A stretch of DNA of 64,000 bases from Candidatus Poribacteria bacterium (GTDB taxonomy: Bacteria > Poribacteria > WGA-4E > WGA-3G). Under the pieces are notes generated by a model, which saw only the letters and a list, made by a program, of their open reading frames with translations, did not search any database and was not told the origin of the DNA. The DNA lies in NCBI GenBank assembly GCA_965247285.1, contig CBDFHD010000002.1, positions 1,139,772 to 1,203,771 on the forward strand. The letters run 5' to 3'. Both the position numbers and the translations under genes were made by a program. Positions 663-50,917 of this stretch are shown in pieces; position 1 is the stretch's first letter, and every line of letters begins with the position of its first letter.

Positions 663-2564
663 CTATAGAAAAAACAGATAGTATGCGAGGAATAACACAA
701 TTCCGAGAACCATTGATACAATATAGGATTGGACAAGTCCTGTCTGGAGGCGTCGCAACGTTCCGCCAATCAAACGGATGATAGATGCCACACCGTTGAC
801 AATCCCATCAATAATGCCGTTATCTACAATCCGCCATAAGAGGAAATGAGAACCGTTTTTAATCGGTTGCACAATGAGTGCGTTATATACCTCATCAACA
901 TAATACTTGTTCGCAAGAAGCTTGTGTAGTGCATTGGTAGGTTCGTCAGATGGTACTCGTTTGCTATAACGTGTCCACGCGAACGCAATACCCGCCAGAC
1001 CGACAACCGATGAAATTGCCATAAACAGAAATACATTACCGGATGCCTCATGGTGCGTCTCTGGAAAAACACTCTTCGTGAAGTCGTGGAACCAACTCTC
1101 ATGTCCACCCCACCCCAACAGCAAGCCAATTAAGGCAGAGGGAATCGCCAGAATCGCCAGCGGCACCCACATGACTGGTGGCGATTCGTGCAGATGCGAA
1201 GCAACTTCGGATTCAACACGAGATCCACCATAAAACGTCACGAAGATCAGGCGGAACATATAAAACGCCGTTAAGAATGCCGTGACTAAACCGATGACGT
1301 AAATAAGAGGCGAACTCCCCCATGCACTGTGTAAGATTTCATCTTTGCTCCAGAATCCGCTTAGAAACGGAAATCCGGCAATGGCAAGCGCACCTACTAA
1401 AAAGGTCCAGTGCGTTATCGGCATCTTTGCCTTTAAGCCGCCCATCTTCCGCATATCCAATTCATTCGCCATCGCGTGCATCACACTACCAGCGGTGAGG
1501 AACATCAGCCCTTTAAAGAAGGCATGCGTTACTAAATGGAAAACGCCAGACGCATAAGCACCAACACCAACACCAAGGAACATGAATCCGAGTTGGCTCA
1601 CAGTGGAATAGGCGAGAATGCGTTTTATATCGTTCTGGGTAAGTGCTATCGTTGCAGCGAAGAACGCAGTCAAAACACCGATCCAAGCGACCACTTCACC
1701 GGTGTGCGCTATGTTATAAAGCACAGCCGAGCGTGCTATCATATATACGCCTGCTGTCACCATTGTAGCGGCGTGAATCAAGGCACTGACAGGTGTAGGA
1801 CCTTCCATTGCGTCCGGGAGCCATACATAGAGCGGAATCTGCGCCGATTTACCTATCGCGCCAACGAAGAGTAGCAAGGTCGCAATTACAAGGGTACTGG
1901 CACCAAAGATTTTCTGAAAATTATCTGCCTCAGCGGCATCAAATATCGATGCGAAATCGAGAGTCCCAAAAGCTGCAAACAGGGTAAACATCCCCAGCAG
2001 AAAACCGAAATCACCGATTCGGTTCACGATGAACGCCTTTTTCCCAGCGTCTATCGCTGACTGCTTTTGGTACCAGAACCCGATCAGTAGGTAGGAACAA
2101 AGTCCGACCCCTTCCCATCCGATGAACATCATCAGATAGTTGTTGCCGAGGACCAAGATTAGCATTGCAAAGATGAACAGGTTCAGATAGGCAAAATAGC
2201 GCGTATATCCTTCATCGCCATGCATGTAGCCGATGGAATAGACGTGGATGAGAAACCCAACACCTGTAATCACTAACAACATCACTGACGTTAGTGCGTC
2301 CACACGGAACCCAATATTGAAAGCGAACGACTCACCTGTAATCCATTCATATAGCGTTTCATCAAACGGGGCAGCACCGCCGTGCAAACTGGCAAAAGCG
2401 ATAATCGAACAGACTAAAGAAACAAGCACTGCAAGCGAACCTATCCACCCGCTCAGTTGCTCGTTACCTTTTAGCCCCTTATTTTCTGAAAGTCCTAATA
2501 ACCCGTTAATCAGAAACCCAACAAGCGGGGCAACTAACAAGACAACAATTAATTCAAGTGACAT
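663..2564 (-). CDS. nuoL: NADH-quinone oxidoreductase subunit L
   Basis: 633-aa polytopic membrane protein with the antiporter-like NuoL/ND5 signature (WLPDAMEGPTPVSALIHAATMVTAGVY). Lies at the end of the nuo cluster. Confidence 0.9.
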   Translation of the reverse strand: MSLELIVVLLVAPLVGFLINGLLGLSENKGLKGNEQLSGWIGSLAVLVSLVCSIIAFASLHGGAAPFDETLYEWITGESFAFNIGFRVDALTSVMLLVITGVGFLIHVYSIGYMHGDEGYTRYFAYLNLFIFAMLILVLGNNYLMMFIGWEGVGLCSYLLIGFWYQKQSAIDAGKKAFIVNRIGDFGFLLGMFTLFAAFGTLDFASIFDAAEADNFQKIFGASTLVIATLLLFVGAIGKSAQIPLYVWLPDAMEGPTPVSALIHAATMVTAGVYMIARSAVLYNIAHTGEVVAWIGVLTAFFAATIALTQNDIKRILAYSTVSQLGFMFLGVGVGAYASGVFHLVTHAFFKGLMFLTAGSVMHAMANELDMRKMGGLKAKMPITHWTFLVGALAIAGFPFLSGFWSKDEILHSAWGSSPLIYVIGLVTAFLTAFYMFRLIFVTFYGGSRVESEVASHLHESPPVMWVPLAILAIPSALIGLLLGWGGHESWFHDFTKSVFPETHHEASGNVFLFMAISSVVGLAGIAFAWTRYSKRVPSDEPTNALHKLLANKYYVDEVYNALIVQPIKNGSHFLLWRIVDNGIIDGIVNGVASIIRLIGGTLRRLQTGLVQSYIVSMVLGIVLFLAYYLFFL

Positions 2565-2754
2565 AATTTTTTAACGATTGGGTTTTCGCTCCCTTTTGGC
2601 GAAGCTTACAAGCCAAAACTTGCTGTTAAAAGCTCCGTTGTCAAAATCGGGTTTTCGTTCCGTTTCAACAACGTGAGTTATGATTAAATTGTTCTGAAGA
2701 ACAAGTGAATAGGAACGGTCATTTTACATCTCATGACTAAATCAAAAGTCCTTG

Positions 2755-3054
2755 CTAACCTTTCAACGAATTAATTTCATCCACATTAACCGTCTGCCGA
2801 TGTTTGAAGACGCTCACAATAATTGCGAGCCCAATCGCGACCTCGGCAGCAGCGACAGTCATCACAAAGAAAACGAATATTTGTCCTGTTGCCTCACCGA
2901 GACTACGACTGATTGCCACAAAAGCGAGATTCGCCGCATTTAGCATCAGTTCAATACACATAAAGATGATAATAGCGTTCCTGCGGACGAGGACCCCGAT
3001 GACTCCCGTTGCAAACAAGAGTGCGCTCAAAATGAGATAATACTCTAATGACAT
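2755..3054 (-). CDS. nuoK: NADH-quinone oxidoreductase subunit K
   Basis: About 100 aa with 3 TM helices from the internal Met ([14 protein letters not shown]...). Start is preceded by AAGGAAAATTAAAAAT on the coding strand. The track ORF extends further upstream, probably spuriously. Confidence 0.85.
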
Positions 3055-3125
3055 ATTTTTAATTTTCCTTGCGGTTCGGTCAAGTAACTTTGGAACTTTG
3101 ACATTCCGTGGCGTAAACCCGCCTT

Positions 3126-3194
3126 CCAAATGTAAAGCAAAGACAAATTATGCCATTTAAGGCATAATTTCATTACAGGCTACGTTTTTGATGC
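3126..3194. repeat. intercistronic repeat family 'CCAAATGTAAAGCAAAGACAAATT + palindrome'. Copies at 3126-3194, 18078-18150, 12455-12510; partial copies at 8568-8600 and 4980-5012
   Basis: Direct reading. Copies 3126 and 18078 are near-identical over about 70 bp. The palindrome AAATTATGCC-ATTTAA-GGCATAATTT becomes AAATTGTGCT-TTAAT-AGCACAATTT at 12471 and AATGAAAATG-TTTG-CATTTTCATT at 4988. Confidence 0.75.
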
Positions 3195-3223
3195 TATAAA
3201 GATAAACACCTCACCTACTGAAT

Positions 3224-3757
3224 TTAGTTTTCTTCTTGAGCATCGCGTTTTACCAAAACGATAACGCCAATCAACGCCGCCAACAAAATAAGCGAGGTAA
3301 CCTCAAACGGTAGGAGGTACTTGGTGAACAGGAGTTCACCAATGTCATAAGTAGTTGTCGTTATCGCTCCGGTCGCAGGCACTGCCGATGCCACTGCGGT
3401 GTTGTTGGGCGAATTCACTGCGATATAGATGCCTTCGGCGGCAAGAAGGATGCCTAAAATAATAGCGAATCCCTTGAGTTTCCCCCCAAGAGCCCCTTTC
3501 ACCGAGAGTGTACCCAAGTTCAGGAGCATAATCACAAAGAGAAACAGGACCATGATCGCGCCAGCATAGACAATTACTTGTACAGCCGCAACGAAATGTG
3601 CACCGAGCAGGACAAAAAGCCCCGCTTGTGCGAAAAACGTTACAATAAGCGAAAGCGCGCTATAAATCGGATGTCGAAACGAGATTACAGCAATCGCGCC
3701 AATCAGCGAGACCGCTCCAAAGAGAATAAATAGAATCTGTTCTGCATTCATCAGCAT
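3224..3757 (-). CDS. nuoJ: NADH-quinone oxidoreductase subunit J
   Basis: 177-aa membrane protein with NuoJ motif IVYAGAIMVLFLFVIMLLNLG. Not NuoI, since it has no Cys clusters. Confidence 0.85.
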   Translation of the reverse strand: MLMNAEQILFILFGAVSLIGAIAVISFRHPIYSALSLIVTFFAQAGLFVLLGAHFVAAVQVIVYAGAIMVLFLFVIMLLNLGTLSVKGALGGKLKGFAIILGILLAAEGIYIAVNSPNNTAVASAVPATGAITTTTYDIGELLFTKYLLPFEVTSLILLAALIGVIVLVKRDAQEEN

Positions 3758-3767
3758 GCCTCCTATT

Positions 3768-4949
3768 CTATTGCGTCGAGAGCGGTTGATGTGAGTTCTC
3801 GTCGCTATCCTGGATTGCAGGCTTAGGGGTCTTCATCACAAGCAGTCCTGCGACAATAGATACAACAATAAACGCGGAAACCACATTGCCGATCCCCACG
3901 ATCAGACGAGAGCCGGTCATTATCCATAAAGTGCCGGTTACGACGATTGAACTTAAGGCGACAGGCAATAGGTATTTCCAACCGAGGTTCATAAGTTGGT
4001 CATAGCGGAACCGAGGAAGTGTCCAGCGAACCCAAATAAACACGAATAGGAATATCGCCGTTTTGACGAAGAAAATACCAAACGAGATGAGTCCACTCCA
4101 GACGGGGCCACCGATATTCTCCAATCCGAAGAAGTGCCATCCACCTAAGAAGAGTGTCACCACTACAGTGGATCCAACAATCATGTTCATGTATTCTGCC
4201 ATGAAGAACATCGCGAATTTCATACTGCTGTATTCGGTGTGATATCCGGCAACAAGTTCCTGTTCCGCTTCGGCAAGGTCAAAAGGCAATCGATTTGTTT
4301 CCGCAAACATTGCCGTTGTAAATGCCAGGAATGCGGGGAAGTGAATCAGAAAATTCCAATGCCACGGATATGAACCTTGTGCCATTGCAATCTCACGAAG
4401 GCTGAGAGAACTCGTTAGCATCAGTACGCCGATGATTGCTAATCCGAGCGTTAGCTCGTAACTAATCATCTGCGCAGATGAACGTAAACCGCCCAAGAGC
4501 GAATACTTGTTATTAGATGCCCATGCCCCAAGCACGACCCCGTAGACACCGAGGGAGGTTACCGCCAAAACATACAGAATACCGATGTTGATATCCGCAA
4601 TCTGGAGCGGTATTTCGTTTCCCAATATCGTGATAGAACTCCCAAATGGCACGACTGCAATCGTAACCATCGCAGGCACCAAGAGCATCGCGGGAGCAAG
4701 CACATAGAGCGGCTTATCCACGTGATCCGGAATAAGATCTTCTTTAAAGAGGAACTTTAACCCGTCAGCAATTGGTTGTAGAATCCCTTGGAAACCGACG
4801 CGATTCGGTCCCAATCGATCCTGCATCCATCCGCTCACCCGACGTTCCGCCCAAATCATTGCCATCACACCAATAAGCAGGAGATGTACGATGATGAGAA
4901 TCTTGCCGATTGAACTGAGGAAGAAAACGAGAAGTTGTGAATTTTCCAT
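3768..4949 (-). CDS. nuoH: NADH-quinone oxidoreductase subunit H
   Basis: 393-aa polytopic membrane protein with NuoH/ND1-like conserved stretches (RRVSGWMQDRLGPNRVG, AFTTAMFAETNRLPFDLAEAEQELVAGYHTEYS). Confidence 0.9.
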   Translation of the reverse strand: MENSQLLVFFLSSIGKILIIVHLLLIGVMAMIWAERRVSGWMQDRLGPNRVGFQGILQPIADGLKFLFKEDLIPDHVDKPLYVLAPAMLLVPAMVTIAVVPFGSSITILGNEIPLQIADINIGILYVLAVTSLGVYGVVLGAWASNNKYSLLGGLRSSAQMISYELTLGLAIIGVLMLTSSLSLREIAMAQGSYPWHWNFLIHFPAFLAFTTAMFAETNRLPFDLAEAEQELVAGYHTEYSSMKFAMFFMAEYMNMIVGSTVVVTLFLGGWHFFGLENIGGPVWSGLISFGIFFVKTAIFLFVFIWVRWTLPRFRYDQLMNLGWKYLLPVALSSIVVTGTLWIMTGSRLIVGIGNVVSAFIVVSIVAGLLVMKTPKPAIQDSDENSHQPLSTQ

Positions 4950-5129
4950 TTTTTTAACTATGGGCCGGCGCGCATCGTTCCAAATGTAATGAAAATGTTT
5001 GCATTTTCATTTATTGTCTCCTGACAGGTTTCTGGTGCGTTTCCGACGTTTCCTTTCTATGAAGGGTTTTAAGATATCTACATCCGAAGTTTCTTCTTGT
5101 TCGTAACTCTGGTTATTGAGCCTACAGGC

Positions 5130-6779
5130 TTAGGTTAGCTTGATTCCCGCATCCCCAATTTTTTGATGCGTGGTATCACCATATCCTGGGACACTCTCCG
5201 CAATTGCAAGGGCAATCTCACCGGCAAAATGGTAGTTCATCTCACCGCCCAACTGCTTGGCAAGCTGCTGCGTAATTTCCCAATCCGCACGCGCTTCACC
5301 GGGTGGGTCAACCGCCTTACGAATCCGCTGCACCCAACCTGTCGAATTAGTGAAGGTGCCATCTTTCTCGGCGAAGGTTGTTCCCGGTAGAACCACATCT
5401 GCTAACTGTGTGACTTCTGAGGGCAAAACGTCTTGCACGATAAGGAAATCAACACTTTCCAACGCCGCTTTTTCAGCATCTTCAAGAGGACGCTCAGGTC
5501 CACCGCTAACGAGATAAACGACTTTCGCGCCCGATACTTTCTCCCAAAGCGCGTCACCTTCTAAAACGACGTTACCATTCGCAGAACCGAGTATCGTTCG
5601 TGCCCCTGCCATGTTAGGGTTTTTGTCGGCTTCAATCGTAAACTGAGGGAACTTGTGTTCTTCACCGGGCAACTGTCCAAAGAGTCCCAACTGCGTTGTT
5701 TTCAGCACACCATGTGCGAACTGTTGTAAAACGTAATTGTCTTCATTTGTACCCTGTGCAGAGCCGATAACAACAATGTCCTCAGTTTCTATTTCCGACA
5801 ATTTTTCTGTAATTACCGCTAAGGCATCTGCCCAATGTGTTGGAGTGAGTTCGTCATCAACCCGTTTCATCGGAAGTTGGAGTCGGTCATCGCTGTTCAC
5901 ATAGTGGTAACCCAGGCGACCATCGTCACACATCCAATGTTGGTTAATATCTTCGTGGAAGCGCGGCTTGATCCTGTACACGCCATCGGCTTTATATTCT
6001 ACGGTGATATTGCAACCGACACTACACCCCGAGCAAACGCTGTTCGCTTTCTCTAAGAACCACGGACGAGACTTGAACAAGAAATCCTTGCTAGTCAATG
6101 CCCCGACGGGACAAATATCAACAACATTGCCTGCCAATTTGTTATCCAGTACCTGCAAGGGAACACCTTCATGGCTTCGTGGAATATCAATTTCATCGTG
6201 GGAGCCGCGGTGAACTAAGCCTAATTCGCCCGTTCCGGAAACCTCTTCCGCGAATCGAATACACCGGGTGCAGACAATGCAGCGCGTTGTGTAAAGCAGC
6301 ACATCGGGTCCTAAGTCTTTCTTGGGTGGAACATTTTTGACCTCAAGATAACGACTCTTATCGCGTCCGTGTCGATGCGAGTAGTCTTGAAGATCACACT
6401 CGCCTGCCTGATCACAGACGGGACAGTCAAGGGGATGATGAACAAGCAAAAATTCGAGTATATCCTCGCGCGCCTTTTTGACCCGTGGACTATCCGTCCG
6501 AACAATAAAGTCGTACTTTCCGTCAAGTTTCCTATCAGGTGGTGCTGTTCTAAGCACCGTCGTACACCCGGTTGCGAGTTGCCGATCCGGGACGATTGCA
6601 CCAGCAGGTGGGAAGAAAACGTGTGGCTCAACGAGACACATTCTGCAATTCGCTGGACTGCTCAACCCTGGGTGATAACAGTAGTGAGGGACTTCAATAC
6701 CGTGTTCCCTTGCTGCCTCGACTACATTCGTTCCATCTTCAACCTCTACCTCGAGGTCATCTAATTTAATAAATGCCAT
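5130..6779 (-). CDS. nuoG: NADH-quinone oxidoreductase subunit G (short form)
   Basis: N-terminal 2Fe-2S motif (CYHPGLSSPANCRMCLVE) and His(Cys)3 4Fe-4S motif (HPLDCPVCDQAGECDLQ). At 549 aa it is shorter than E. coli NuoG. Confidence 0.85.
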   Translation of the reverse strand: MAFIKLDDLEVEVEDGTNVVEAAREHGIEVPHYCYHPGLSSPANCRMCLVEPHVFFPPAGAIVPDRQLATGCTTVLRTAPPDRKLDGKYDFIVRTDSPRVKKAREDILEFLLVHHPLDCPVCDQAGECDLQDYSHRHGRDKSRYLEVKNVPPKKDLGPDVLLYTTRCIVCTRCIRFAEEVSGTGELGLVHRGSHDEIDIPRSHEGVPLQVLDNKLAGNVVDICPVGALTSKDFLFKSRPWFLEKANSVCSGCSVGCNITVEYKADGVYRIKPRFHEDINQHWMCDDGRLGYHYVNSDDRLQLPMKRVDDELTPTHWADALAVITEKLSEIETEDIVVIGSAQGTNEDNYVLQQFAHGVLKTTQLGLFGQLPGEEHKFPQFTIEADKNPNMAGARTILGSANGNVVLEGDALWEKVSGAKVVYLVSGGPERPLEDAEKAALESVDFLIVQDVLPSEVTQLADVVLPGTTFAEKDGTFTNSTGWVQRIRKAVDPPGEARADWEITQQLAKQLGGEMNYHFAGEIALAIAESVPGYGDTTHQKIGDAGIKLT

Positions 6780-6883
6780 CTTTTAATTTTCCTTTTTCTA
6801 ATTTTCCTTGCGGAGAAACAACGTGGGTTAGAACTATCCGCTGCCTTTCCTTAAATCCGCTCTCCATTTCATTACGAGCTACG
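6780..6883. repeat. about 100-bp leader repeat 'TTTTAATTTTCCTTGCGGAGAAAC(A/G)ACGTG(G/A)GTTA...', second full copy at 26580-26682. Its start-proximal 20-mer recurs at 3058-3077 and (duplicated, opposite strand) 50881-50917
   Basis: Direct alignment of 6780-6883 with 26580-26682, about 80 percent identical. All copies abut a start codon (nuoG, amidohydrolase, nuoK, comD-like). They supply AAGGAAAATTAAAA as the RBS. Confidence 0.7.
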
Positions 6884-7023
6884 GTTTTTGGTTTCATCTT
6901 TAACGCCTGTAACTGAAAACGGCAGCTTGCATTCTCACTGCGAAGCAGGCGCAAGCGGGTCTACGTAAAGGCACGCTATTCATCAAACCGAACTGACCGA
7001 ACCACAAGGAACAATTAAAAAAC

Positions 7024-8508
7024 CTACAGGTCAGCGAACTCTTTCGGAACAAATCGCTGTTGATACGCGTAATTTTCCTCCGGTGGTACAGTCGCCTCAG
7101 CAACCGGTAGGGTGACGAGTTTACCTTCTCGGAGGGCGGCTTCAAATTCGGGGCGGAACTTACGCATATAACTCACGGCGGGCCAGGAAACAGCGATGCC
7201 AAAAACACAAATCGTATTCCAGGTCATCGTATCCACATTCGCGATGTTATTGGCGACACTTTCCAGCAAATCTAAGTCTTCGTAGATTTCTTCTGTCTCA
7301 CCGGTATCGCCCCATCTACCATTTGCAGCGACACCGAATTTGGGGCGCATAATAGTGCTTTTTTGCCCGTTTCCGTCGGCAATCCGTTGGACAATATCTC
7401 GCACCCACGGGGTCCCCCAGCGGCACGGTGTGCACTGTCCACAAGATTCGTGCGCGTAGAACTTCATGATATTGAGCAGGCAATCGACGATATTCCGAGT
7501 CTCGTTCATGACAATGATGCCACCGGAACCGAGCATCGATTTGGCAAGCGTGAGTGCAGTAAAATCGAGTCGTGTGTCCAACTCATAATGCGTTAAAATC
7601 GGTGCAGAACTACCACCGGGTATAACTGCTTTCACCTCTTCGCCGCGCAGTCCACCTGCAACTTCAATAAGTTCTGAACATGTCAAGCCGAGCTCAAGTT
7701 CATAAACGCCGGGTTCGTTAACATCACCACTGATGCAATAAAGCTTCGTGCCCGTGTTGGGGTCGGGTGTCGGCGGATCAGACCGCGTATCGGCATACGT
7801 TGGTCCCATTTGGGTGTACCATTCAACGCCGTTGCCAACGATAAAAGGCAGGTTACACAATGTCTCAACATTCTGTACCACGGTTGGCTTTCCAAACACA
7901 CCTGCAACAGCAGGGAACGGGGGTTTGTTCCGAGGTTGCCCACGTTTCCCTTCAAGCGATTCAATGAGTCCCGTCTCCTCGCCACAGATATAGGCACCGG
8001 CTCCTGGGTGTGAATAGATGTCAACGTTGAGTCCTGTACCACGAATGTCTTTGCCGAGGTATCCCTTTTCGTATGCCTCCTTGATAGCGGCATCCAACAT
8101 CTTTTTCCCAAGGGTGAATTCACCCCGAATGTAGATATAAGCTGTCTCGATACCCATTGCATAGCAGCAAATCAGGATGCCTTCAATCAATAGGTGTGGA
8201 TTCTTTTCCAAAACGTAGCGGTTACTGAACGTTCCTGGCTCACTTTCGTCAGCGTTGCAACAGAGGTAACACGGCTTTATATCTTTCGGAACGAAACTCC
8301 ATTTCAAGCCCGTCGAGAATCCGGCACCGCCCCTACCTTTCAACCCGGAATCCATCACCATTTTAGCGATATCGTCTGGTTGATATTCCGCAATTGCCTT
8401 TTCAAAACGGGCGTAGCCGTCGTATTGCCGAAAGACATCGAACGTGTTAATATCAGGTACATCCAGATGCTCGTAGAGAATTCGTCTTTCTTGAATTTTT
8501 TTAATCAT
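7024..8508 (-). CDS. nuoF: NADH-quinone oxidoreductase subunit F
   Basis: 494 aa with the NADH/FMN-binding 51-kDa subunit signature (GRGGAGFSTGLKW, ESCGQCTPCR). Confidence 0.9.
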   Translation of the reverse strand: MIKKIQERRILYEHLDVPDINTFDVFRQYDGYARFEKAIAEYQPDDIAKMVMDSGLKGRGGAGFSTGLKWSFVPKDIKPCYLCCNADESEPGTFSNRYVLEKNPHLLIEGILICCYAMGIETAYIYIRGEFTLGKKMLDAAIKEAYEKGYLGKDIRGTGLNVDIYSHPGAGAYICGEETGLIESLEGKRGQPRNKPPFPAVAGVFGKPTVVQNVETLCNLPFIVGNGVEWYTQMGPTYADTRSDPPTPDPNTGTKLYCISGDVNEPGVYELELGLTCSELIEVAGGLRGEEVKAVIPGGSSAPILTHYELDTRLDFTALTLAKSMLGSGGIIVMNETRNIVDCLLNIMKFYAHESCGQCTPCRWGTPWVRDIVQRIADGNGQKSTIMRPKFGVAANGRWGDTGETEEIYEDLDLLESVANNIANVDTMTWNTICVFGIAVSWPAVSYMRKFRPEFEAALREGKLVTLPVAEATVPPEENYAYQQRFVPKEFADL

Positions 8509-8606
8509 GCGGGTTTTCGCTCCGATTTTTCCGTTGTCAAAATCGGGTCTTCGATGAATTTGAACAACAAATGTAAAGCAAACTGTGTGCTAATAGCAAC
8601 CTCTGC

Positions 8607-9131
8607 TTATGCTTCAAGTTTTGCTAAAAGTTCATCAACCTTTTCCGGGGTTAAATTTTTATATAAATCGTCATTCACCATGATAACAGGAGCGACATCG
8701 CACGAGGCGAGACATTCCACTTTCATGAGCGTGAACTTACCGTCAGCAGTTGTGCCTTTCGCGAGATTGGTTTCAGAGGCAACATCCGTATCCAACTTCG
8801 ACTTGAGATAGTCCAAAACAACCTTGCAATCCCGTAGGGCACAAGGTAGCGTATAACATACCCGAATGACGTACTCGCCTACCGGTTCTTCAAAAAACAT
8901 TGGGTAGAAGGTGACGACATCTTTAACTTTCATCACGGTGACTTCAAGTTGTTCAGCGACATACTTCATAACGGCAGGACTAATGTAGCCTGCCTGCCTC
9001 TGTGCGATATGGAGCGTCGGAAGCATTGCCGCTTCCTTAGTCGGATATCGCCCTATCAACTCGTCGAGTTCACGTTGGTTTTCTTCATTAAACGCGAAAG
9101 GCGTTTCGATTTGAATGCGTTCATCTGACAT
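8607..9131 (-). CDS. nuoE: NADH-quinone oxidoreductase subunit E
   Basis: Thioredoxin-like 2Fe-2S 24-kDa subunit (CLASCDVAPVIMVND). Start chosen at internal MSDERIQ. The 5' extension in the track overlaps an intergenic IR element. Confidence 0.8.
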   Translation of the reverse strand: MSDERIQIETPFAFNEENQRELDELIGRYPTKEAAMLPTLHIAQRQAGYISPAVMKYVAEQLEVTVMKVKDVVTFYPMFFEEPVGEYVIRVCYTLPCALRDCKVVLDYLKSKLDTDVASETNLAKGTTADGKFTLMKVECLASCDVAPVIMVNDDLYKNLTPEKVDELLAKLEA

Positions 9132-9268
9132 AAATGTTTCCTTGGAATAGTTATCGGCTATCAGTTTGCTTCGTAGTGAGAACAGTGAGTTAAGGCATGT
9201 AGACTGCAAAAGCATCTTGCATGCCACGGCACTGATAACTATTTCTCTGTTTCTTGAAAGTGTGCGTT

Positions 9269-9610
9269 CTAATAGTTGCCCCAAAACTGAATACGGTTAC
9301 CTTCTGGATCGCGGATGTCGAAATTGGCAAGCCCATCGTCGTTCTCAAGCTTCCGTAATCGCAACCCTTTCGTCTTCAGTTCCTGATGAACGGTCCTGAC
9401 GCACTCAACGTGGAAGACGATTTTCTGTCTCCCTTCGTTTGGTTTGCTCGCGCTATGGAGGCACAACCTGCAAACCCCTGTGTTAAAGCGAGAAAAGCGA
9501 TGCTCAGGGAACGGCTGATCTTCGTCAGGAGACAATCCGACGACATCTCTGTAAAACGCGATTACAGATTTCATGTTTTTGACAAAAAGTATAATGCTGC
9601 CCAGCTCCAT
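9269..9610 (-). CDS. VOC (glyoxalase/bleomycin-resistance) family protein
   Basis: 113 aa. C-terminal FDIRDPEGNRIQFW is the classic VOC motif. Intact ORF inserted between nuoD and nuoE. Confidence 0.7.
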   Translation of the reverse strand: MELGSIILFVKNMKSVIAFYRDVVGLSPDEDQPFPEHRFSRFNTGVCRLCLHSASKPNEGRQKIVFHVECVRTVHQELKTKGLRLRKLENDDGLANFDIRDPEGNRIQFWGNY

Positions 9611-9642
9611 TTAGTCCCTCAAGCAAAAGTGTTATAACTCGT

Positions 9643-10839
9643 TTAGCGATCCAACTCCCCGGCAACAACATTCAGACTTCCCAAGACAGCCACAGTATCG
9701 GAAACCATCCCACCTTCTAACATTTGCGGCAGTGCTTGGAAGTGAAAGAAACTCGGTGGACGGATGCGGATGCGATAAGCGGTCCCGCTGCCATCACTCA
9801 CAATATAAAATCCGAGTTCCCCGTTCGGTGATTCGGTTGCACAATAATGCTCACCCTTTGGGGTTTCCACGCCGTGTCCGTCCATAACAACCTTAAAATG
9901 ATGGATTAAGCCTTCAATATGCCCATAAGCGTCGGACTTATCCGGCATCGTAATCTTGTTATCTTCGACGTTGACCGGTCCATCAGGCATATTATCCAGG
10001 ACTTGGGTAACGATACCACAACTCTGAATCATCTCCTCCATCCGGACGAGGTAGCGGTCGTAGGCATCACCGTTGGCTCCAACTGGCACATCAAATGTGA
10101 CTTCATCGTAACTGGAATACGGTTCAGCCTTGCGTATATCATGTGCTACGCCGGTGGCTCGAAGGCAGGGACCTGTTAACCCGTAACTGATGGCATCATC
10201 AGGTGAAATGGGTCCGACACCTTTTGTCCGATCCATCCAGATACGGTTCCGTGTGAGCAGCGTATGAGTCTCCTTCAACGCCTTCGGGAAGTCGCTGACG
10301 AATTGCCGTACATCTTCTTCACACCCAGCATAGAGGTCGCGAAGTACACCACCAACGCGCGTGTAACTGGTCGTCAACCGTGCTCCGGTCGTCTTTTCAA
10401 AGATACTATACAACTTCTCGCGTTCGCGGAAACTATAGAGGAATACAGAGAATGCTCCTAAGTCCAGCGCAGCAGTTCCCAACCATAATAGGTGATCTGC
10501 GAGTCGTGAGAGCTCCGCCATCAAAATACGGATGTATTGACACCGTTTTGGGACTTCAATGTCGAGCAACTGCTCAACAGCAAGCACATATCCGAAATTG
10601 TTAGACAACGGCGATAGATAGTTCATCCGGTCGGTTACAACAATGTACTGGTTGTAATCCAAGTGTTCACCAAGTTTCTCAAACCCGGTATGCAGGTAGC
10701 CTGCATGGGGTGTCGCCTTCAAAACGGATTCGCCATCAAGTTCTAACACAATGCGCAGGGTGCCGTGCGTTGCCGGATGTTGCGGACCGAAGTTGAGAAT
10801 CATCTTCTCACCTGTGGCGCGTTTCAGCCCACCTTGCAT
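9643..10839 (-). CDS. nuoD: NADH-quinone oxidoreductase subunit D
   Basis: 398-aa 49-kDa subunit homolog (LNFGPQHPATHGTLRIVLELDGE, MEEMIQSCGIV). Confidence 0.9.
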   Translation of the reverse strand: MQGGLKRATGEKMILNFGPQHPATHGTLRIVLELDGESVLKATPHAGYLHTGFEKLGEHLDYNQYIVVTDRMNYLSPLSNNFGYVLAVEQLLDIEVPKRCQYIRILMAELSRLADHLLWLGTAALDLGAFSVFLYSFREREKLYSIFEKTTGARLTTSYTRVGGVLRDLYAGCEEDVRQFVSDFPKALKETHTLLTRNRIWMDRTKGVGPISPDDAISYGLTGPCLRATGVAHDIRKAEPYSSYDEVTFDVPVGANGDAYDRYLVRMEEMIQSCGIVTQVLDNMPDGPVNVEDNKITMPDKSDAYGHIEGLIHHFKVVMDGHGVETPKGEHYCATESPNGELGFYIVSDGSGTAYRIRIRPPSFFHFQALPQMLEGGMVSDTVAVLGSLNVVAGELDR

Positions 10840-11006
10840 AAAATACTCCTTTTTTATAGTTATCGGTCTTCGGTTATCAGTTTTCAGTTAAGAGGTGGGT
10901 TTTTAACAACTTACCCTCCTCTTAGCGTACTCTGGAGCGTGGTAGATTGTTACCAAGTGACTTCTTAACCAATAACCGACAACTAACCACTGACAACCAC
11001 TTTGTC

Positions 11007-11555
11007 TTAGGCATTCTGTTTATCAAAATTAAAGCGTTCGCGCTCGCCACGTCCGCGGAGTGGATAATCCTTTCGGAGCGGGTGTCCCTCAAAATCGTCC
11101 GGCATCAAGATCCGGTGAAGATCGGGGTGTCCCTCAAAATTAATTCCGAACATGTCATAAGTTTCACGCTCTAACCAGTTCGCACCTTTCCACAATGCGG
11201 TAACAGATGGAATACTCAGGTCGTTTTCATGGACAGGCACTTTTACTCGGACACGACACTGTCCCTGATAGGAATAAAGCTGATAGACTACCATAAACCT
11301 CGCATAGTCAAACTGCATCAATTCGGATTCCATCTGTGAATTGTCGACGGCAGTAGCATCAACGAGAAAGGTATAGGCGAGTTCAGGATCTGTTTTCAGA
11401 TACTCCAAAATAGCGTAAACCTGTTCTTTACGTACAACAACGACAACAGTACCACGCATTTCGTCCTGTGCTAATAGGGCATCTGCGTGATGTTCCTCTA
11501 ATTTTGCAAGCACAAGAGGTTTCGGCTGTTCTTCGATTTCTTTCTCTTCATTCAT
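11007..11555 (-). CDS. nuoC: NADH-quinone oxidoreductase subunit C
   Basis: 182-aa 30-kDa subunit family. Sits between nuoB and nuoD. Confidence 0.85.
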
Positions 11556-12082
11556 ACGACTGCCTCTACTCCTTTAGGTGAGGCACCACTGGTGATTTTC
11601 TGCTGCACCTGTAGCACCGCATCAATGAGATCTTCGGGTCTCGGCGGGCATCCGGGTATGTAGACATCTACGGGAATGAACTGATCAACGCCTTGAATTA
11701 ACGTATAGGTATCAAACACGCCACCGCAGGAAGCACATGCCCCCATCGAAATCACCCACTTCGGATCCGGCATCTGGTCATAGATACGTTTTAGCACCGG
11801 CATCATTTTGATAGAAATCCTGCCGGAAACGATGAGCAGATCGGATTGGCGGGGTGAAAATCGGATCGCTTCAGAACCGAATCGAGAGAGGTCGAATTTG
11901 GCAGCCAAGGTCGCCATCATCTCAATTGCGCAGCACGCTGTCCCAAACGGCATGGGCCACAACGAATTCTTGCGTCCCCAGTTGACGACCTTACCAATAG
12001 TCGTTGTGATGATGTTCCCATCCGTCTGTCCGACACCTTGTCCAACAAAATCTAATCCCATGTTAAGCCTCCTTTCTTCCAA
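11552..12082 (-). CDS. nuoB: NADH-quinone oxidoreductase subunit B
   Basis: 176 aa. PSST/20-kDa subunit with Cys ligands for cluster N2 ([24 protein letters not shown]). Confidence 0.9.
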
Positions 12083-12420
12083 GCGTAGATATAGCCGAGA
12101 AGAAGAATACCGATAAACACCAGCATTTCAACTAAAATAAACAAGCCACTCGTCTCAGAGAATTTCTTGAAGACCACTGCCCACGGGTAGAGGAACACCA
12201 CTTCGATATCGAAGATGATAAAGAGCATCGCAATGAGATCAAACCGGATAGTAAACCGTTGCCTCGCATCGCCGACTGGTTGGACACCGGATTCGTAAAC
12301 GGAGAGTTTAGCGCGGTTTGGGCGTTTGGGTCCAAGAATATGGGTTAGAGCGAGATTAATACCCGCAAAGAGAACTGCAAAGAGTCCTAACAACAAGATT
12401 GGAAGATAATCTATTAACAT
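12052..12420 (-). CDS. nuoA: NADH-quinone oxidoreductase subunit A
   Basis: 122-aa membrane protein with 3 TM helices. First gene of the cluster. Overlaps the nuoB start. Confidence 0.85.
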
Positions 12421-12691
12421 TGTTTCTAATCTATTTTGCCCTCACACATCTTAATAATGTAAAGCAAAGACAAATTGTGCTTTAATAGCACAATTTGGCA
12501 TCGCAAACTTTGCCAAAGTAAAAGGTTAATGCCGACTCAAACACACATTTTTCTAATATGTTTAATAGTTTCTCATAATTCAAAAACATTGTCAAGTTTT
12601 TTTTAGAAAAAAACGAAAGATGAAAACAAATTTCTGGGGTTGGCACTTCAAACCTATGTGCTTCGTGCTGGATAAAAAACATATTTTCCTG

Positions 12692-12720
12692 TTGATATAG
12701 GGTCTGAAATGTAGTATACT
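12692..12720 (+). promoter_or_regulatory. sigma70-like promoter for the DUF433 gene
   Basis: TTGATA at 12692-12697, a 17-bp spacer, then TATACT at 12715-12720. Lies about 45 bp upstream of the 12767 start. Confidence 0.4.
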
Positions 12721-12766
12721 TATGACAAATCAGGCATGAAAGTTATCGGAGGTTATCATACTCAAA

Positions 12767-12985
12767 ATGAAACCTGAGCACGTGATAAACCAAGATCCTG
12801 AGATTCACGGGGGGACACCGGTGTTTGCGGGCACTCGTGTTCCCGTAAAAGCACTTATTGATCACCTCAAAGCCGGAGAGAGTCTTGACTATTTTCTTGA
12901 AGGGTTCCCTTCGGTTTCTCGGGAACAGGCAGTCGCTTTTTTAGAACTCGCGTTGACCCGAGCCATCCGATCCCATCGGTGGTGA
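12767..12985 (+). CDS. DUF433 domain protein (antitoxin-like partner of DUF5615)
   Basis: 72 aa. PEIHGGTPVFAGTRVPVKALIDHL matches the DUF433 fold seen upstream of DUF5615 PIN-like genes. Confidence 0.7.
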   Translation: MKPEHVINQDPEIHGGTPVFAGTRVPVKALIDHLKAGESLDYFLEGFPSVSREQAVAFLELALTRAIRSHRW

Positions 12986-13092
12986 TATACTCCCCTACTA
13001 AATCGGTGGTGTTGTTCCTGCGCGTCTGCATTCGTCACCCCACGATGTTGTAAGTACCCCAACCATTCAACCCCCCGGAGATCCAAAACCAC

Positions 13093-13280
13093 ATGCGCGT
13101 TCTCCTCGATGAAAACTTAGACTGGCGATTGGTACGATATTTTGACGCGGATTTTCAAGTCACCACGGTTTCTCGGCAAGGGTGGATCGGATTGAGGACA
13201 TTCACCCTGCTATGTTGAGAGTCAATGAAATGTTAAGAGAAGTTCAACCCGGACATGTCATCCACGTGCCGGCAAGCTAA
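13093..13280 (+). pseudogene. degraded DUF5615 (PIN-like, Mut7-C type) gene
   Basis: Frame 0 gives MRVLLDENLDWRLVRYFDADFQVTTVSRQGW, then a stop. Frame +2 from 13188 continues IEDIHPAMLRVNEMLREVQPGHVIHVPAS. The central roughly 30 aa of the domain is missing and there is a frameshift. Confidence 0.5.
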
Positions 13281-13308
13281 TGTGACCTTTTGCAGATAAC
13301 CGCAAGGT

Positions 13309-14064
13309 CTAAAACCGCTTCAAGCCTCCCCATGTTGTAGCCAGTTTTCTCCCAGGCGTTACGGCGAACCCACCGTTATTCGGAATGCTATCGCCGGTGA
13401 CACTGATGTTATCAAAGATTGCCGCGTAATTTGCAAGACCGAAACCTACGCCGCCTGTCAGAAAACTAGTCAGTTTGCCTGCTTTTGTCTTAATTTTTTG
13501 GCCGTTATGCATCAGAGCAAAATCATCTCCGGTTTCCACAATGTTCTTACTATTTAACCCTAAAATGAAGTGTTCCCCCTTAACGCTTAACTTTAGATGC
13601 GACCACTTGTTCAATTTTAAAAGCGGATGGCGCCCAGCGTAAAGGAGTGGGAACTTTACACCGTGCAAATCGCCTGTCACACAATCCACCCATGATCCGA
13701 GGAGAGGATCGTCATTAACCAGTACCACCGGATCGGCAAAACTACAGTAGAATAACACGCTCCCCTTAACCCGCGCTGCAATCGCTATAGCACTCCTACC
13801 GTGTTTCTTCAGCGGCTTAACATCAAATTCAATTGTGTAATCTTCCCATGTGTCATCACCCGTTGTGAGCAGACGCAGAAATGTCTCATGACTTACGGCG
13901 TGAAGTTCATCGTCAACAACGTCCCAAACACCGGGATCCTTATTCAACTGGACAAGCTCCTGCCAGTCCCTCAGTTCTTTGTGATCAAATGTTTCCAAAA
14001 ACGTCCCTGCCCAGGCAGAGAAAGGCAGGAGAAAAAGCACTACTACAATAGTTACAGATTTCAT
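13309..14064 (-). CDS. secreted hypothetical protein (possible ConA/LamG-like beta-sandwich)
   Basis: 251 aa with N-terminal signal peptide (MKSVTIVVVLFLLPFSAWAG). No confident family assignment. Confidence 0.5.
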   Translation of the reverse strand: MKSVTIVVVLFLLPFSAWAGTFLETFDHKELRDWQELVQLNKDPGVWDVVDDELHAVSHETFLRLLTTGDDTWEDYTIEFDVKPLKKHGRSAIAIAARVKGSVLFYCSFADPVVLVNDDPLLGSWVDCVTGDLHGVKFPLLYAGRHPLLKLNKWSHLKLSVKGEHFILGLNSKNIVETGDDFALMHNGQKIKTKAGKLTSFLTGGVGFGLANYAAIFDNISVTGDSIPNNGGFAVTPGRKLATTWGGLKRF

Positions 14065-14209
14065 AATGATCCTCCTCTCGAGGTTAAAGCCGCTTCAAGT
14101 TGGGTTGTTGGGTTTCGCTATCTCTATGTATACCAACAGGTCATTGAAAATCAGGATCTTCGGTACAAATAGAAGGTTCTGGAACTCTTACCGCTCAACC
14201 AGCACGGGG

Positions 14210-17200
14210 TTACAACGTGGGTAAATTTTTGACGATCTCCACGGTTTTCAGGCTGACGGTGATGACGCGGGCAATCAGATCCACGATATACCGTGGCTCC
14301 GACTCACGGTTCGGGTCGTTCACAATCCCGCTCCGTTTGTCTATCTTGACGCGGTACTGATCCACCACCCACTCCAACGCAGAACGTGTGCCGAGCCGAT
14401 AGTCGTAGACCGCCGCAGGGATGCCGTCCAGTGTCAGGAAATCGTTGTATTTCAGCTGCGTCTTGTCTTTGGACAATTTCATCTTCTCAACCCGCCAATC
14501 TACCGTCATCCCCGGCGTTTCAATGTATTTCAGCTTGTCGTATTTGGGAACGGATTCATAGTTGACGTGGAAGTCTGCTAACGCCGCGCCTGCGTTGGCG
14601 AATCCCCAAAAGTCTTCGGCGAAGGGGATATGCGGGAGATCGCGCTTGAGGTTTGCCTCGTATTTCTCACGATAGGTGGGTTGGTGCAGGAGACCGTAGT
14701 TATAGTGGAAGATGTCCCATTTGGTGATGGTGTCTTCGCCGTAGTGGGTTCGGAATTCGGTCAATGCCCAATCGGTGATGTTCTCTTGTCGATTGGTGCC
14801 GTCCTCGTCGTAGGTGTAGAAAGGGAAGCATTGAGAATCGCCTGTAAAATGGAAATCTGGAATTGCATCAACCATCAATGTGTGAAAGGATGTGTTTGTT
14901 CTCGGGGAACTTACACAGATTGTCCTGTTTTCTGTTTCTGCATCAGATGTCGGAAAAATTGAGGGAAACACGTACACGCACTCATTCATCATCCTATGAA
15001 AATAGAGGTGCAATTTCGTAAATGGTCGGTAAAAAGATGTTCGAATATTTACATCCGAAAACTCCGCCAATGTGCCTGTTCTCAACTTGGACTTCAGGCT
15101 CCGGGTCCACTTAATCTTGGTATCATTGGTATCTATAAAATCATTGACATTAATATCTCTGTTACTTCGCCGTTCCCATTGAAACACCTGTCCATTGTAA
15201 TACTCCATCATCTGTGTCAAATTATCTGTGAGGATATTTCGGGCGAAGTTGTAAACCCATGAATCGCGGGCAGTCACTACGCCAACGCTGTAAGTTTTAA
15301 AAAGTGTTCCTTCTGCATCTCCTTCACCTTTCTTTGATGTTTCACTCCCCATCGGGAGGAAGGTGTCAAATTCAGCATGGAGTCCTTCGGTGAGCCACGT
15401 ATAGCGACTATCAGGCGTTATTTCCTGCCAATCAACGTTTTGGTGATGCTGCTTTGAATTGAGATAATTATACTTCTCTTCCTTCCGCCAAAATTCATCA
15501 ACACTGGCATAGAAGATTTCGGCTATTTTCGAGACAGGTTTTGAATCTGTACTGATGGCATTTCTCTTAATAAAAAGATTAATGCTCACCCCGATCTGAA
15601 TCCCAAAGACATTGTGTGTTGTCCCCGACAATTTTGGATTCCTACGGACGTTCCCACCGAGATCTAAAATGTAAATTGCGTCGAAATCTTCTGCGAGGTG
15701 CTTCCGCATGCCGTCAAATGCGGTTCCGTCGAGAAAACCGTTATTTGTCACAAACGTGACAACACCTTCTTTCCCAATTCTCTTTGATGCCCAACTGAAT
15801 GCTTTCACATACGGATCGTATAATTTACTTTTCAGCTGCGCGGCGGAATCTCTTACATACGTCTCAGCAACCTGCTCGTCCATTAACTCATATTTCCGAT
15901 TTTTGTTATTATCGTTTTCATTCACTTGCCCCATGTTGTAAGGTGGATTGCCGATAACGACGAACATATCCGCTGTCTTCTGTCGCTCCACGCGTTCTGT
16001 GTTCTCGCGCGTAAAGAGTTCCCCTTGCCGCTGCTCCAGTAACTCAAACGTGTCCGCAAGTGCGATCCCTTCAAACGGCAGATACGTCCCCGTCCGTTGG
16101 AAGAATTCTTGCTCGATGTTCAGACTGGCGATGTAGTAGGGCAGGAGCATCACCTCGTTGCAGTGGAGTTCGTGGCGGTATTTCGTCTCTAACACCGTGC
16201 CTTGGATGTCCTGCATGAGTCGGACGATGAAGTTGCCTGTCCCGACGAACGGATCGATGATATGAACGCCGGTGTCCGATAGCGACCGACCGAATTCGGT
16301 TTCCAAGATGTGTTCCACACTTTTCACCATGAAATCGACGATAGGCTGCGGTGTGTAGACGATGCCGTGTGTGTCCGCCACATCCTCGGAGAACCCCTGA
16401 AAGAACTTCTCGTAAAACGTATTGAGGAAGTGCTGTTTTTGGGTGAAGTCTTGGCAGAGCGTCGCGGCCTGCTCAATGGCAGTATAAAACCGATCTAAAG
16501 GCTCAAGAAACACGTCACGACTCATTGCATAACGCATGAGCGCGGCACTGACTTTTTCAATCTCGACAGCGATGATATTTCGGCTTGTAAAGTCTGACCG
16601 GTTGAAAACGGTGCGAAAGATGCGTTCGGTGAGGATATGTTGGATGAGCATCTCCTCGACGGCATCCTGTGAGAGTTCCGGGTTGATGGAGGTGCGGCAG
16701 ATTTCGTAGAAATCGGTGAACGCCTTTTTGAAGGCTGGGTCGGTTTCGTGGCGTTGCTCAATGAGTTCTTTTAGTTTGTTTGCGAGGTCGGGTACATGTT
16801 CTCTGAAGTCGGTGACAGCGGTCTGCCAGTTTTCGAGCGCGGGTGGGACGTAAGCGAATAGGTATTGGAGTGCCGCAATTAAGTTTGCGGGTGCGGTGAT
16901 CTCGAGATCAAGTGCCTCACGTCCGTTTTGATACAGGATGGCGCGTTGTGGGGTTTGGAAGAGGATATTGTCGAGCGGGTAACCAGCCTCGCGTTTCTCC
17001 TGCACGGATATTGAGAGGTCGTCGTCTATATCCTTCGCTTCCCAGTAGGCGAGCGGGAGTCCGTATTCGTCGATGATTGCGCCGTCGATAACGATGCGAT
17101 TTCCTTTTGGGGCGCGCATTGGGTATTGGGGAACGAGTGTGGCGTTCATCTGCTTTGCGCAGGCATCGAGTAAGAAAGCGAAGGGGTTGCTGACCGCGCC

Positions 17201-17329
17201 TTCGTGCGTGATGTCGTGTTTATCGTATTGCTGCAGCGTGGCGTAGTAGTCTCGGACTGCTTTGTGGCTGGGTTTGAGGGTGAGTCGCGGCATAGGGGTA
17301 TGATAACAGGTTTTTGGAAGACAAGTCAA
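14210..17329 (-). CDS. MmeI-like type IIL/IIG restriction-modification enzyme (single-chain endonuclease plus N6-adenine methyltransferase)
   Basis: 1039 aa. N-terminal PD-(D/E)xK with D-x9-EAK spacing (IIDEYGLPLAYWEAKD) as in MmeI. SAM-binding FVGTGNF and gamma-class NPPY motif (VIGNPPYNMG). No helicase motifs. Long C-terminal TRD-like region. Confidence 0.7.
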   Translation of the reverse strand: MTCLPKTCYHTPMPRLTLKPSHKAVRDYYATLQQYDKHDITHEGAVSNPFAFLLDACAKQMNATLVPQYPMRAPKGNRIVIDGAIIDEYGLPLAYWEAKDIDDDLSISVQEKREAGYPLDNILFQTPQRAILYQNGREALDLEITAPANLIAALQYLFAYVPPALENWQTAVTDFREHVPDLANKLKELIEQRHETDPAFKKAFTDFYEICRTSINPELSQDAVEEMLIQHILTERIFRTVFNRSDFTSRNIIAVEIEKVSAALMRYAMSRDVFLEPLDRFYTAIEQAATLCQDFTQKQHFLNTFYEKFFQGFSEDVADTHGIVYTPQPIVDFMVKSVEHILETEFGRSLSDTGVHIIDPFVGTGNFIVRLMQDIQGTVLETKYRHELHCNEVMLLPYYIASLNIEQEFFQRTGTYLPFEGIALADTFELLEQRQGELFTRENTERVERQKTADMFVVIGNPPYNMGQVNENDNNKNRKYELMDEQVAETYVRDSAAQLKSKLYDPYVKAFSWASKRIGKEGVVTFVTNNGFLDGTAFDGMRKHLAEDFDAIYILDLGGNVRRNPKLSGTTHNVFGIQIGVSINLFIKRNAISTDSKPVSKIAEIFYASVDEFWRKEEKYNYLNSKQHHQNVDWQEITPDSRYTWLTEGLHAEFDTFLPMGSETSKKGEGDAEGTLFKTYSVGVVTARDSWVYNFARNILTDNLTQMMEYYNGQVFQWERRSNRDINVNDFIDTNDTKIKWTRSLKSKLRTGTLAEFSDVNIRTSFYRPFTKLHLYFHRMMNECVYVFPSIFPTSDAETENRTICVSSPRTNTSFHTLMVDAIPDFHFTGDSQCFPFYTYDEDGTNRQENITDWALTEFRTHYGEDTITKWDIFHYNYGLLHQPTYREKYEANLKRDLPHIPFAEDFWGFANAGAALADFHVNYESVPKYDKLKYIETPGMTVDWRVEKMKLSKDKTQLKYNDFLTLDGIPAAVYDYRLGTRSALEWVVDQYRVKIDKRSGIVNDPNRESEPRYIVDLIARVITVSLKTVEIVKNLPTL

Positions 17330-17362
17330 GGGGAACCTGACATATCCAGATTCTCTTTGGAT

Positions 17363-18007: not shown

Positions 18008-18275
18008 TTTTTTAACTATGGTCTCCTGGGCTGTGCTCTATTACATTTTTTTAATTATTGGGTTTTCGCCCTGCGCTCCAAATGTAAAGCAAAGACAAAT
18101 TATGCCATTTAAGGCATAATTTCATTACGCGTAGGTTTTTGAGTATTCTGAATATCCTTCTTAAAATCGAACCGCAAGCCCGTAACGTAGTGGAGGGCGA
18201 CTCGAAATCAAAAACTTTCAAATTGCAGACCACGTTACTTATCCACAAGGTAAAATTAAAAAAACCGCGGACTGT

Positions 18276-26568: not shown

Positions 26569-26801
26569 GAGAAACTCCTTTTTTTAATTTTCCTTGCGGA
26601 GAAACGACGTGAGTTAAAACTCTGATGTGTCTTTCTTAAATCCGCACTCCATTACATTACGTGCTAACGTTTTTGGATCAAAGCGACACATAGCGATCAG
26701 GCCCTCGCTCCTACAGATATTTTCTAATCAAGGTCCCTTCGCTGCGTTGTAGGCTTAGAATCTTAGGCGAATAGGATTATAAAAAACTTCTTTCTGCTTC
26801 A

Positions 26802-50743: not shown

Positions 50744-50917
50744 AAATCACGATGTCCGTTACGAAGTTTTCGTTTCACAACAAAGGGGTTTCTTGAGATA
50801 GTATCAAACCCCATAGCCCGTAAGCGTAGCGGAGGGCGGGTTTAAGAAACGCACTTGATAGTCGAAACGCTCGTCCTTCCTCCGCAAGGAAAAATTAAAA
50901 TAAGGAAAAATTAAAAA

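Follow-up and report, generated by a model that had tools for sequence, protein, structure and literature searches.

A probably mobile REP-like DNA module between cistrons of Candidatus Poribacteria

Copies of the repeat at the nuo locus

The stretch of DNA analysed here (the window, 64,000 nucleotides) carries minus-strand nuo genes as well as trkH and pdxH; the gene labels NuoJ, NuoH, NuoL, PdxH and TrkH were confirmed with Pfam. The 21-mer AATGTAAAGCAAAGACAAATT occurs in it exactly three times, at 3129, 12456 and 18081, always on the plus strand, and zero copies were expected from the shuffled window. Each 21-mer is followed by a palindrome that forms a 10-bp hairpin with the flanking AAATT/AATTT, and an unfiltered search of the entire window with a covariance model of core and hairpin returned the same three copies and nothing else at full length. 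The 10-mer CCAAATGTAA alone was not significant in the window (6 matches with at most one mismatch, 5.2 expected). A sequence-only reading of this DNA had placed a repeat at 3126, 12455 and 18078, between cistrons, with ATGCC/GGCAT replaced by GTGCT/AGCAC between copies; the repeat is real, its three full copies all lie between minus-strand genes, and the replacement is genuine. Copies, remnants and the outer palindromes that surround them (termed frameworks, see below) are listed by position.

3055..3190, plus strand: A2 outer framework hosting copy 1; stem GCCT 3121-3124 / AGGC 3177-3180; loop TCCA^TTTCATTAC
3129..3167, plus strand: module copy 1, nuoJ-nuoK spacer, 66.4 bits with the covariance model; 16-nt arm AATGTAAAGCAAAGAC, hairpin AAATT-ATGCC-ATTTAA-GGCAT-AA; a target-derived TTT at 3168-3170 completes the 10-bp stem
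4951..4989, plus strand: A1 left half and 7-nt core stump AATGTAA (4983-4989), nuoG-nuoH spacer
4989..5010, plus strand: separate hairpin ATGAAAATG-TTTG-CATTTTCAT, not homologous to the module hairpin
6859..6879, plus strand: empty site, nuoF-nuoG spacer; A2 framework GCTC-TCCA^TTTCATTAC-GAGC
8570..8582, plus strand: truncated remnant, nuoE-nuoF spacer; first 13 nt of the core, AATGTAAAGCAAA
12456..12493, plus strand: module copy 2, nuoA 5' leader; stem GTGCT/AGCAC; TTT 12494-12496
18008..18275, plus strand: trkH-pdxH spacer, 268 nt; mosaic: A1 left flank (truncated), A1-like unit carrying copy 3, A2-like flank (inverted)
CCTGCGC 18070-18076 / GCGTAGG 18129-18135, plus strand: outer stem of copy 3
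18081..18119, plus strand: module copy 3, trkH-pdxH spacer; stem ATGCC/GGCAT; TTT 18120-18122
2565-2600, 3055-3080, 4950-4982, 6780-6810, 18008-18060, 26572-26640 and ~50860-50917: repeat-borne leaders

Two partial copies had also been proposed. At 8568 a core remnant is present, reduced to the first 13 nt (model E = 0.075), and the same nuoE-nuoF remnant is found in the near-identical strain L114. At ~4980 the covariance model, applied to the whole window, gave no match, and the AATGTAA stump is what is kept of a core; because L114 keeps a full module in its nuoG-nuoH spacer (stem ACGCC/GGCGT, followed by the separate hairpin ATGAAAATG..CATTTTCAT), the window stump is a deletion derivative. 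The pair ATGAAAATG/CATTTTCAT, previously counted as a covarying version of the stem, is a distinct hairpin that in L114 lies downstream of the intact module.

On the gene strand the A2 framework of copy 1 ends in CCGCAAGGAAAATTAAAAAT, directly before the nuoK ATG (3054). Several window genes have such repeat-borne leaders, in which a Shine-Dalgarno-like sequence and TTAAAAAA (or AAATTAAAAA) abut the start codon, examples being CCGCAAGGAAAATTAAAAAT-ATG and CCCATAGTTAAAAAA-ATG; most other window genes have ordinary AGGAG leaders. A TTG inside the repeat gives a 124-aa nuoK ORF (2755-3129, minus strand), the real start being the ATG at 3054, and three of the 120 listed NuoK entries (P0003, P0007 and P0036) have 124 aa, compared with 99 for most.

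The surroundings contain further features. Other repeat modules without the core lie in nuo spacers at 2567-2672 and 8498-8568 (GGAGCGAAAACCC..TTAAAAAA and TCCGTTGTCAAAATCGGGTTTTCG; families D3 and D4), and L115 and L117 carry related CTCCGATTT.TCCGTTG...AAATCGGGTTTC palindromes. A 1039-aa Type ISP restriction-modification protein with coupler, N6 methylase and Type_ISP_C domains is encoded at 14210-17329 (minus strand), between pdxH and the gene upstream of nuoA, and is absent from the orthologous region of the relative L092. A glyoxalase-family gene (9269-9610, minus strand) lies between nuoD and nuoE, the nuoH-nuoJ gap at 3757-3768 is just 10 nt with no nuoI between, and in the relatives L114-L117 a CitMHS-type transporter gene is found among three Proton_antipo_M (NuoL/M/N-type) genes downstream of nuoK. 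A 99-nt tandem unit (79% identity) is present at 51853-52050 (plus strand) inside the ORF 51694-52977, with related 33-nt units at 46402-46467.

Distribution and copy number

For the census, one genome per species (185,579 species) was scanned for the exact 21-mer. At least 113 stretches, belonging to 37 assemblies, contain AATGTAAAGCAAAGACAAATT; 111 of these stretches are titled Candidatus or uncultured Poribacteria and two are MAGs titled 'uncultured bacterium'. The copy analyses used 124 exact 21-mer copies, window included, and the census was seeded on exact 21-mers; orthologous copies in different species are not independent. Non-seed sequence contained 11 further exact copies and nine with 1-4 mismatches, a density of ~1 copy per 45 kb, so that a genome of a module-rich lineage would hold about a hundred; one chromosome has at least 17 exact copies among the matches listed. 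Density varies greatly by lineage, and L116 and L117 have no copy in 20 kb each.

Rfam 15 gave nothing at gathering scores over the window and nothing relevant at E values up to 10 over 2400-18400, annotated plasmids and phages gave no similarity to the module, and literature searches on Poribacteria repeats and 'Poribacteria-1' returned no description of it. One exact 21-mer in a viral contig (IMG/VR, L118 3282-3302) was rejected as a chance match, being in a coding region with no hairpin after it; its translation (..DNVKQRQIEE..) shares the reading frame of the in-frame copy in L068 described below.

Structure of the module and its target

The module is 38-46 nt long and consists of the conserved 16-nt arm AATGTAAAGCAAAGAC, AAATT, 5-8 variable stem bases, a loop, their complement and AA, after which TTT follows. 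The foot of the hairpin (AAATT..AA) is fixed and the inner 5-8 bp differ by subfamily. There is one hairpin per unit, and the module ends (AATG.../...AA) are not inverted repeats, the palindrome being internal. Modules are embedded in several unrelated outer palindromes, the frameworks A1, A2 and B and at least three more.

Framework A1: TTTTTTAACTATGG-CTCCTGG-[6-bp stem]-TCCA^TTTCATTAC-[stem']-GGTTTCTGGTTAATTC
Framework A2: longer unit, 3' end CCTTGCGG
Framework B: ..ATGCAGATCGCA^TTTGGGTGAGTAC...

Other palindromic intergenic repeats provide most of the targets, which are found within their apical loop or at its edge; insertion of modules there accounts for the nested stem-in-stem appearance and for the apparent covariation of outer stems. 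The junction is always N^TTT, in at least five unrelated frameworks, in tandem copies and in an intragenic copy. The host TTT pairs with the AAA of the module, so that insertion itself creates the final three pairs of the 10-bp hairpin. Comparison of filled with empty sites gave no target-site duplication and a junction ambiguity of at most 1 nt. Tandem modules in L043 and L061 precede one shared TTT; here (L043 ~2369-2452, L061 ~68-170) the second module sits between the terminal AA of the first and the reused TTT. Subtypes ATGCC, TTGCC, CCTCG and GTTCG were all found at the same point of the A1 framework.

The hairpin loop of the module is itself split by other small repeats at L001 3952 and 7521, L087 1078, L070 7919 and L059 7657 (for example AATCAACGGTATGAAGCCCGTGTGGGCTTC units and TATAGTAAAACCCACAATTAACTTTACA). 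Since module loops themselves carry other repeats, insertions in these genomes seem to favour hairpin loops in general.

Filled and empty sites in relatives

The distance between framework halves is bimodal: the halves of framework A adjoin (0 nt) at 12 sites and lie 39/40/42 nt apart at 56, and those of framework B adjoin (0 nt) at 7 sites and lie 40/43/46 nt apart at 22. For three further frameworks the predicted empty versions exist, with the same N^TTT junction as the filled ones.

At nuoF-nuoG the window is empty and L114 holds a 42-nt module exactly between A6866 and T6867; the two spacers otherwise differ by 2 substitutions and a second, 22-nt indel. This second indel is also clean (22-nt GTTTTTGCTTGGGTGTTTCCCC in L114, absent from the window at 6828/6829), similar sequence occurs in L031 and L099, and the segment may be another tiny insertion module. 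The nuoJ-nuoK spacer is filled with the same copy in the window and L114, L117 has the same A2 framework in the empty state, and the corresponding spacers of L115 and L116 are unrelated to that of the window. At nuoE-nuoF, L092 has an empty A1 framework unrelated to the repeats and the 13-nt stump of the window, and the trkH-pdxH spacer measures 3 nt in L092 compared with 268 nt in the window. The copy in the nuoA leader is an older insertion, found in L092 (core 21/21, one stem change), in L114 (1 mismatch) and, decayed, in L115 (4 core mismatches and an indel). Comparison with related genomes, which the sequence-only reading had put forward as a check, shows the nuoA-leader copy retained in L092 and L114, and turnover at the other spacers.

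One copy is intragenic. In L068 (2859-2900) a 42-nt module lies in frame (ENVKQRQIVPTQAQ) within a gene of the ornithine cyclodeaminase/mu-crystallin family, and the solved homologues 6t3e and 1omo, when aligned to the L068 protein, show a gap of 12-15 residues exactly at the module.

The aligned spacers show that copies come and go as strains diverge; each indel may represent either insertion or precise excision.

Covariation and folding

Differences between copies preserve pairing, and the hairpin is under structural constraint, as had been proposed: eight perfect stem versions occur across the family, 97% of cells pair among 29 distinct intact sequences retained by filtering, one pair position of this set shows AU, GC, UA and CG, and its covariation score was reached by no shuffle. 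Folding predictions give stable structures (z-scores -2.5 to -4.8); the stem-loop, when co-transcribed, has a predicted energy of -11 to -22 kcal/mol, and either strand should fold stably. L114 adds a lineage-specific double change in the nuoG-nuoH context (ATGCC/GGCAT to ACGCC/GGCGT). The covariance-model alignment over 100 sources was distorted by insert columns and was excluded from the pair counts.

These stems, together with the conservation of the nuoA-leader copy in L092, are what a cis-acting RNA element would offer, i.e. a stem-loop selected for mRNA processing or stability, or for translational coupling that tunes subunit stoichiometry in long operons. Against such an element, the stem is frequently lost. 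In the unfiltered set all five variable pairs are formed in 72 of the 124 copies (58%) and four in 7; 37 copies have at most three variable pairs contiguous from the foot and 8 are interrupted by other insertions. The stem is degraded or interrupted in 34% (no closing AATTT, or an unbroken run from the foot of at most three of the five variable pairs), and widespread 'mixed-arm' variants (e.g. ATGCC..GGAAACCT) lose the hairpin (-0.8 compared with -11.2 kcal/mol). Stem type tracks framework type and genome, so that the covariation lies mostly between subfamilies; covariation of outer stems across framework types is largely due to modules occupying different pre-existing hairpins.

Wobble-tolerant covariation on the transcribed strand, a feature of cis-regulatory RNA, is likewise missing from the outer stems of framework A1, which exist in 16 perfect versions with 218 of 228 cells Watson-Crick, 3 G.T and 1 A.C. 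Inner and A1 outer stems showed no excess of G.U on the transcribed strand (G.U in ~1% of cells). Stems that are almost purely Watson-Crick fit a constraint at the DNA level, or conversion in one step, better than stepwise compensation in RNA. An excess of A.C over G.T in the outer stems of antisense copies (18 compared with 5) was discarded, since it came from an unpaired position common to A2 frameworks and vanished in true 6-bp A1 stems.

Gene context and orientation

Genes were called with a codon-usage caller trained on these sequences. All but one of the copies lie between genes (123 of 124). In 62 cases the two neighbouring genes both run antisense to the core strand, in 25 both run in its sense, and a further 15 copies are in divergent and 4 in convergent spacers; the single orientation relative to genes that had been noted is true of the window and does not extend to the family.

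The antisense bias stems from family A (41 to 12), families B and O together giving 21 to 13. In ~21 family A copies a Shine-Dalgarno-like sequence and TTAAAAAA, both belonging to the framework, abut the next ATG, with 31-34 nt between core and start codon. Bias and spacing would suit a cis-acting RNA element; the orientation bias is, however, that of the host framework and is also present when the module is missing. Nor do the copies keep the fixed orientation and position relative to genes of a cis-regulatory RNA, since they are also found in divergent promoter regions, beside tRNA genes and inside an ORF.

The strand of the module relative to local GC skew showed no bias (57 negative, 66 positive); skew follows gene strand, and over 8-kb windows it is a weak proxy for the direction of replication. 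A sigma-70 promoter on the core strand (AAGACA-17-CATAAT) was considered and rejected: it has 9/12 matches only, promoter-like matches were not above shuffles, and the orientation census gave no preference for a downstream sense gene.

Discussion

The element is probably a mobile DNA module of REP-like type that is tolerated between cistrons, rather than an RNA control device of the nuo operon; to date it has been seen in Candidatus Poribacteria only, and its hosts are sponge symbionts. The view that its covariation reflects RNA selection for nuo expression is not supported, in view of its insertional behaviour, with empty and filled sites, the 42-nt strain indel and the in-frame gene copy, and further by variable nuoJ/K, nuoE/F and nuoG/H spacers, both orientations, about a third of copies stemless and no G.U bias. 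The view that the element is unlike REP was not supported either: it is a short, mostly intergenic, mosaic-forming palindrome that behaves as insertional DNA and whose stem is lost in about a third of copies.

The module sits, without duplication of the target, immediately 5' of TTT, the host TTT completing the stem with AAA. The hairpin may be preserved at the DNA level by a structure-specific mobilising enzyme that recognises the single-stranded DNA hairpin together with the arm, the best guess being an enzyme of the HUH/Y1 type, as for REP/RAYT or IS200/IS605. Template switching is reported to create and maintain perfect hairpins (PMC8794818), and on palindromes such as these it might convert both arms at once, as an alternative or additional form of upkeep. 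Modules presumably reside between nuo cistrons since spacers tolerate insertion, and some host frameworks place a Shine-Dalgarno sequence and TTAAAAAA immediately in front of the following ATG. The spread of the module may be aided by gene conversion among dispersed frameworks; within a single framework type, the filled and the empty state could even be propagated in this way without transposition. REP-like effects on mRNA stability or processing are possible as candidate side effects.

In six-frame ORFs of the 1.03 Mb sampled, no ORF with H-x-H-hydrophobic...Y-x3-NP (the RAYT/Y1 pattern) was found, and between paired copies in L001, L059, L083, L099 and L103 there were ordinary-looking ORFs and no transposase, as judged from N-terminal sequences. 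A more specific proposal, which we advance tentatively, is that the module is the substrate of a previously undescribed single-strand or structure-specific mobilisation system of Poribacteria, in which the AAA foot pairs with a TTT exposed in the loop of another hairpin; the 16-nt arm would then be the recognition or guide sequence of the enzyme. If this were true, the module would be among the smallest target-specific mobile units known, and REP-like elements would have been caught moving.

The cis-acting RNA element set out above is unlikely. The covariation is real, the predicted folds are stable and family A favours the antisense orientation, yet orthologous spacers of relatives are without the element or filled with unrelated repeats, a near-identical strain differs by the very presence of the module, and Rfam holds no match. 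Tight conservation of the core and retention of the nuoA-leader copy in three relatives would also fit selection for a function.

A DNA binding site for a conserved Poribacteria protein (nucleoid, partition or regulatory), with the 21-mer as recognition sequence and the palindrome as dimer site or cruciform, is less plausible again. The core is strongly conserved over 37 assemblies against variable flanks and inner stems, the copies are scattered between genes, and strictly Watson-Crick stems are what a DNA-level constraint predicts; but such a site has no need of covarying stems of arbitrary sequence, it leaves precise empty/filled junctions, reuse of TTT, the in-frame copy and the strain indel unexplained, and copy density is very uneven by lineage (none in the 20 kb each of L116 and L117).

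A portable intrinsic terminator or attenuator is the least probable reading: the opposite strand reads hairpin and then the U-rich tail AAUUUGUCUUUGCUUUACAUU, all three window copies register as terminator-like in a consensus scan of the minus strand, and this same reading places the module behind a tRNA 3' end in L086, L093 and L003, but the scan is lax and its background high (26 found, 17 expected), the stem has just 3-4 G-C pairs and the U tract is interrupted, copies are located within the nuo operon and in the nuoA leader, positions at which efficient termination would do harm, and not at 3' ends of transcription units (15 divergent compared with 4 convergent spacers, the hairpin-side gene pointing away in 45 of 112 classified copies), and a 21-nt tail invariant in most copies is left unexplained. 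By its sequence the gene-strand module resembles a weak terminator.

Among the systems compared, the REP-like mobile module works most like REP/BIME elements. With these and the REPINs of Enterobacteria and Pseudomonas, which RAYT Y1 transposases mobilise, it shares the form of ~40-nt extragenic palindromes at about a hundred copies per genome (here 38-46 nt, 123/124 intergenic, at least 17 in one chromosome among the matches listed), a position between cistrons, a stem that is kept while its sequence differs by class, stem-loop formation when transcribed, and mosaics with other motifs, modules being nested in A1, A2, B and other frameworks and small modules lying inside the module loop. It differs from REP in having an AAATT/AATTT foot and a 16-nt arm in place of a GTAG-type tetranucleotide, in occurring as single units where REP/REPIN form inverted doublets, and in its clear empty and filled N^TTT sites, mostly in loops of other hairpins; the 1.03 Mb sampled contain no gene with the RAYT pattern.

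IS200/IS605 elements and their derivatives (PATEs) resemble the module in the absence of target duplication, the fixed short adjacent target and the hairpin-based recognition proposed for it. In IS608, a guide pairs with the cleavage site, and by analogy the pairing of host TTT with the AAA foot may recall this. IS200/IS605 elements have distinct left and right hairpins and a Y1 transposase, whereas the module has one hairpin in ~40 nt and no transposase in the 1.03 Mb sampled, and their lagging-strand bias contrasts with the 57/66 split by GC skew, itself a weak proxy.

Rickettsia palindromic elements (RPEs) are also small palindromes that spread in one lineage and can sit in frame, as in L068, but they measure 100-150 nt and are often intragenic, compared with 123/124 intergenic copies here. 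Correia elements of Neisseria and MITEs (ERIC, RUP, BOX) are, like the module, dispersed intergenic repeats in operons that can supply expression signals and RNA stem-loops; those elements are bounded by terminal inverted repeats and duplicate their target (TA or another sequence), and the module shows neither feature. The preference for loops of pre-existing palindromes is common to the module and to IS1397/ISKpn1 and the IS110-family elements that target REP loops, these being full transposase-encoding IS and the module 40 nt of non-coding DNA.

To our knowledge, the spread of REP-type palindromes has so far been argued largely from indirect evidence. Exact empty/filled pairs, the strain indel and the N^TTT target rule make the mobilisation mechanism directly testable, and Poribacteria genomes can be screened for the responsible enzyme. 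The discovery of RNA motifs calls for caution, as covariation of nested stems can arise from mobile DNA in palindromes or from conversion at the DNA level. In Poribacteria themselves the repeats inflate spacers within housekeeping operons, mislead start-codon calls (NuoK with 124 instead of 99 aa) and provide strain markers.
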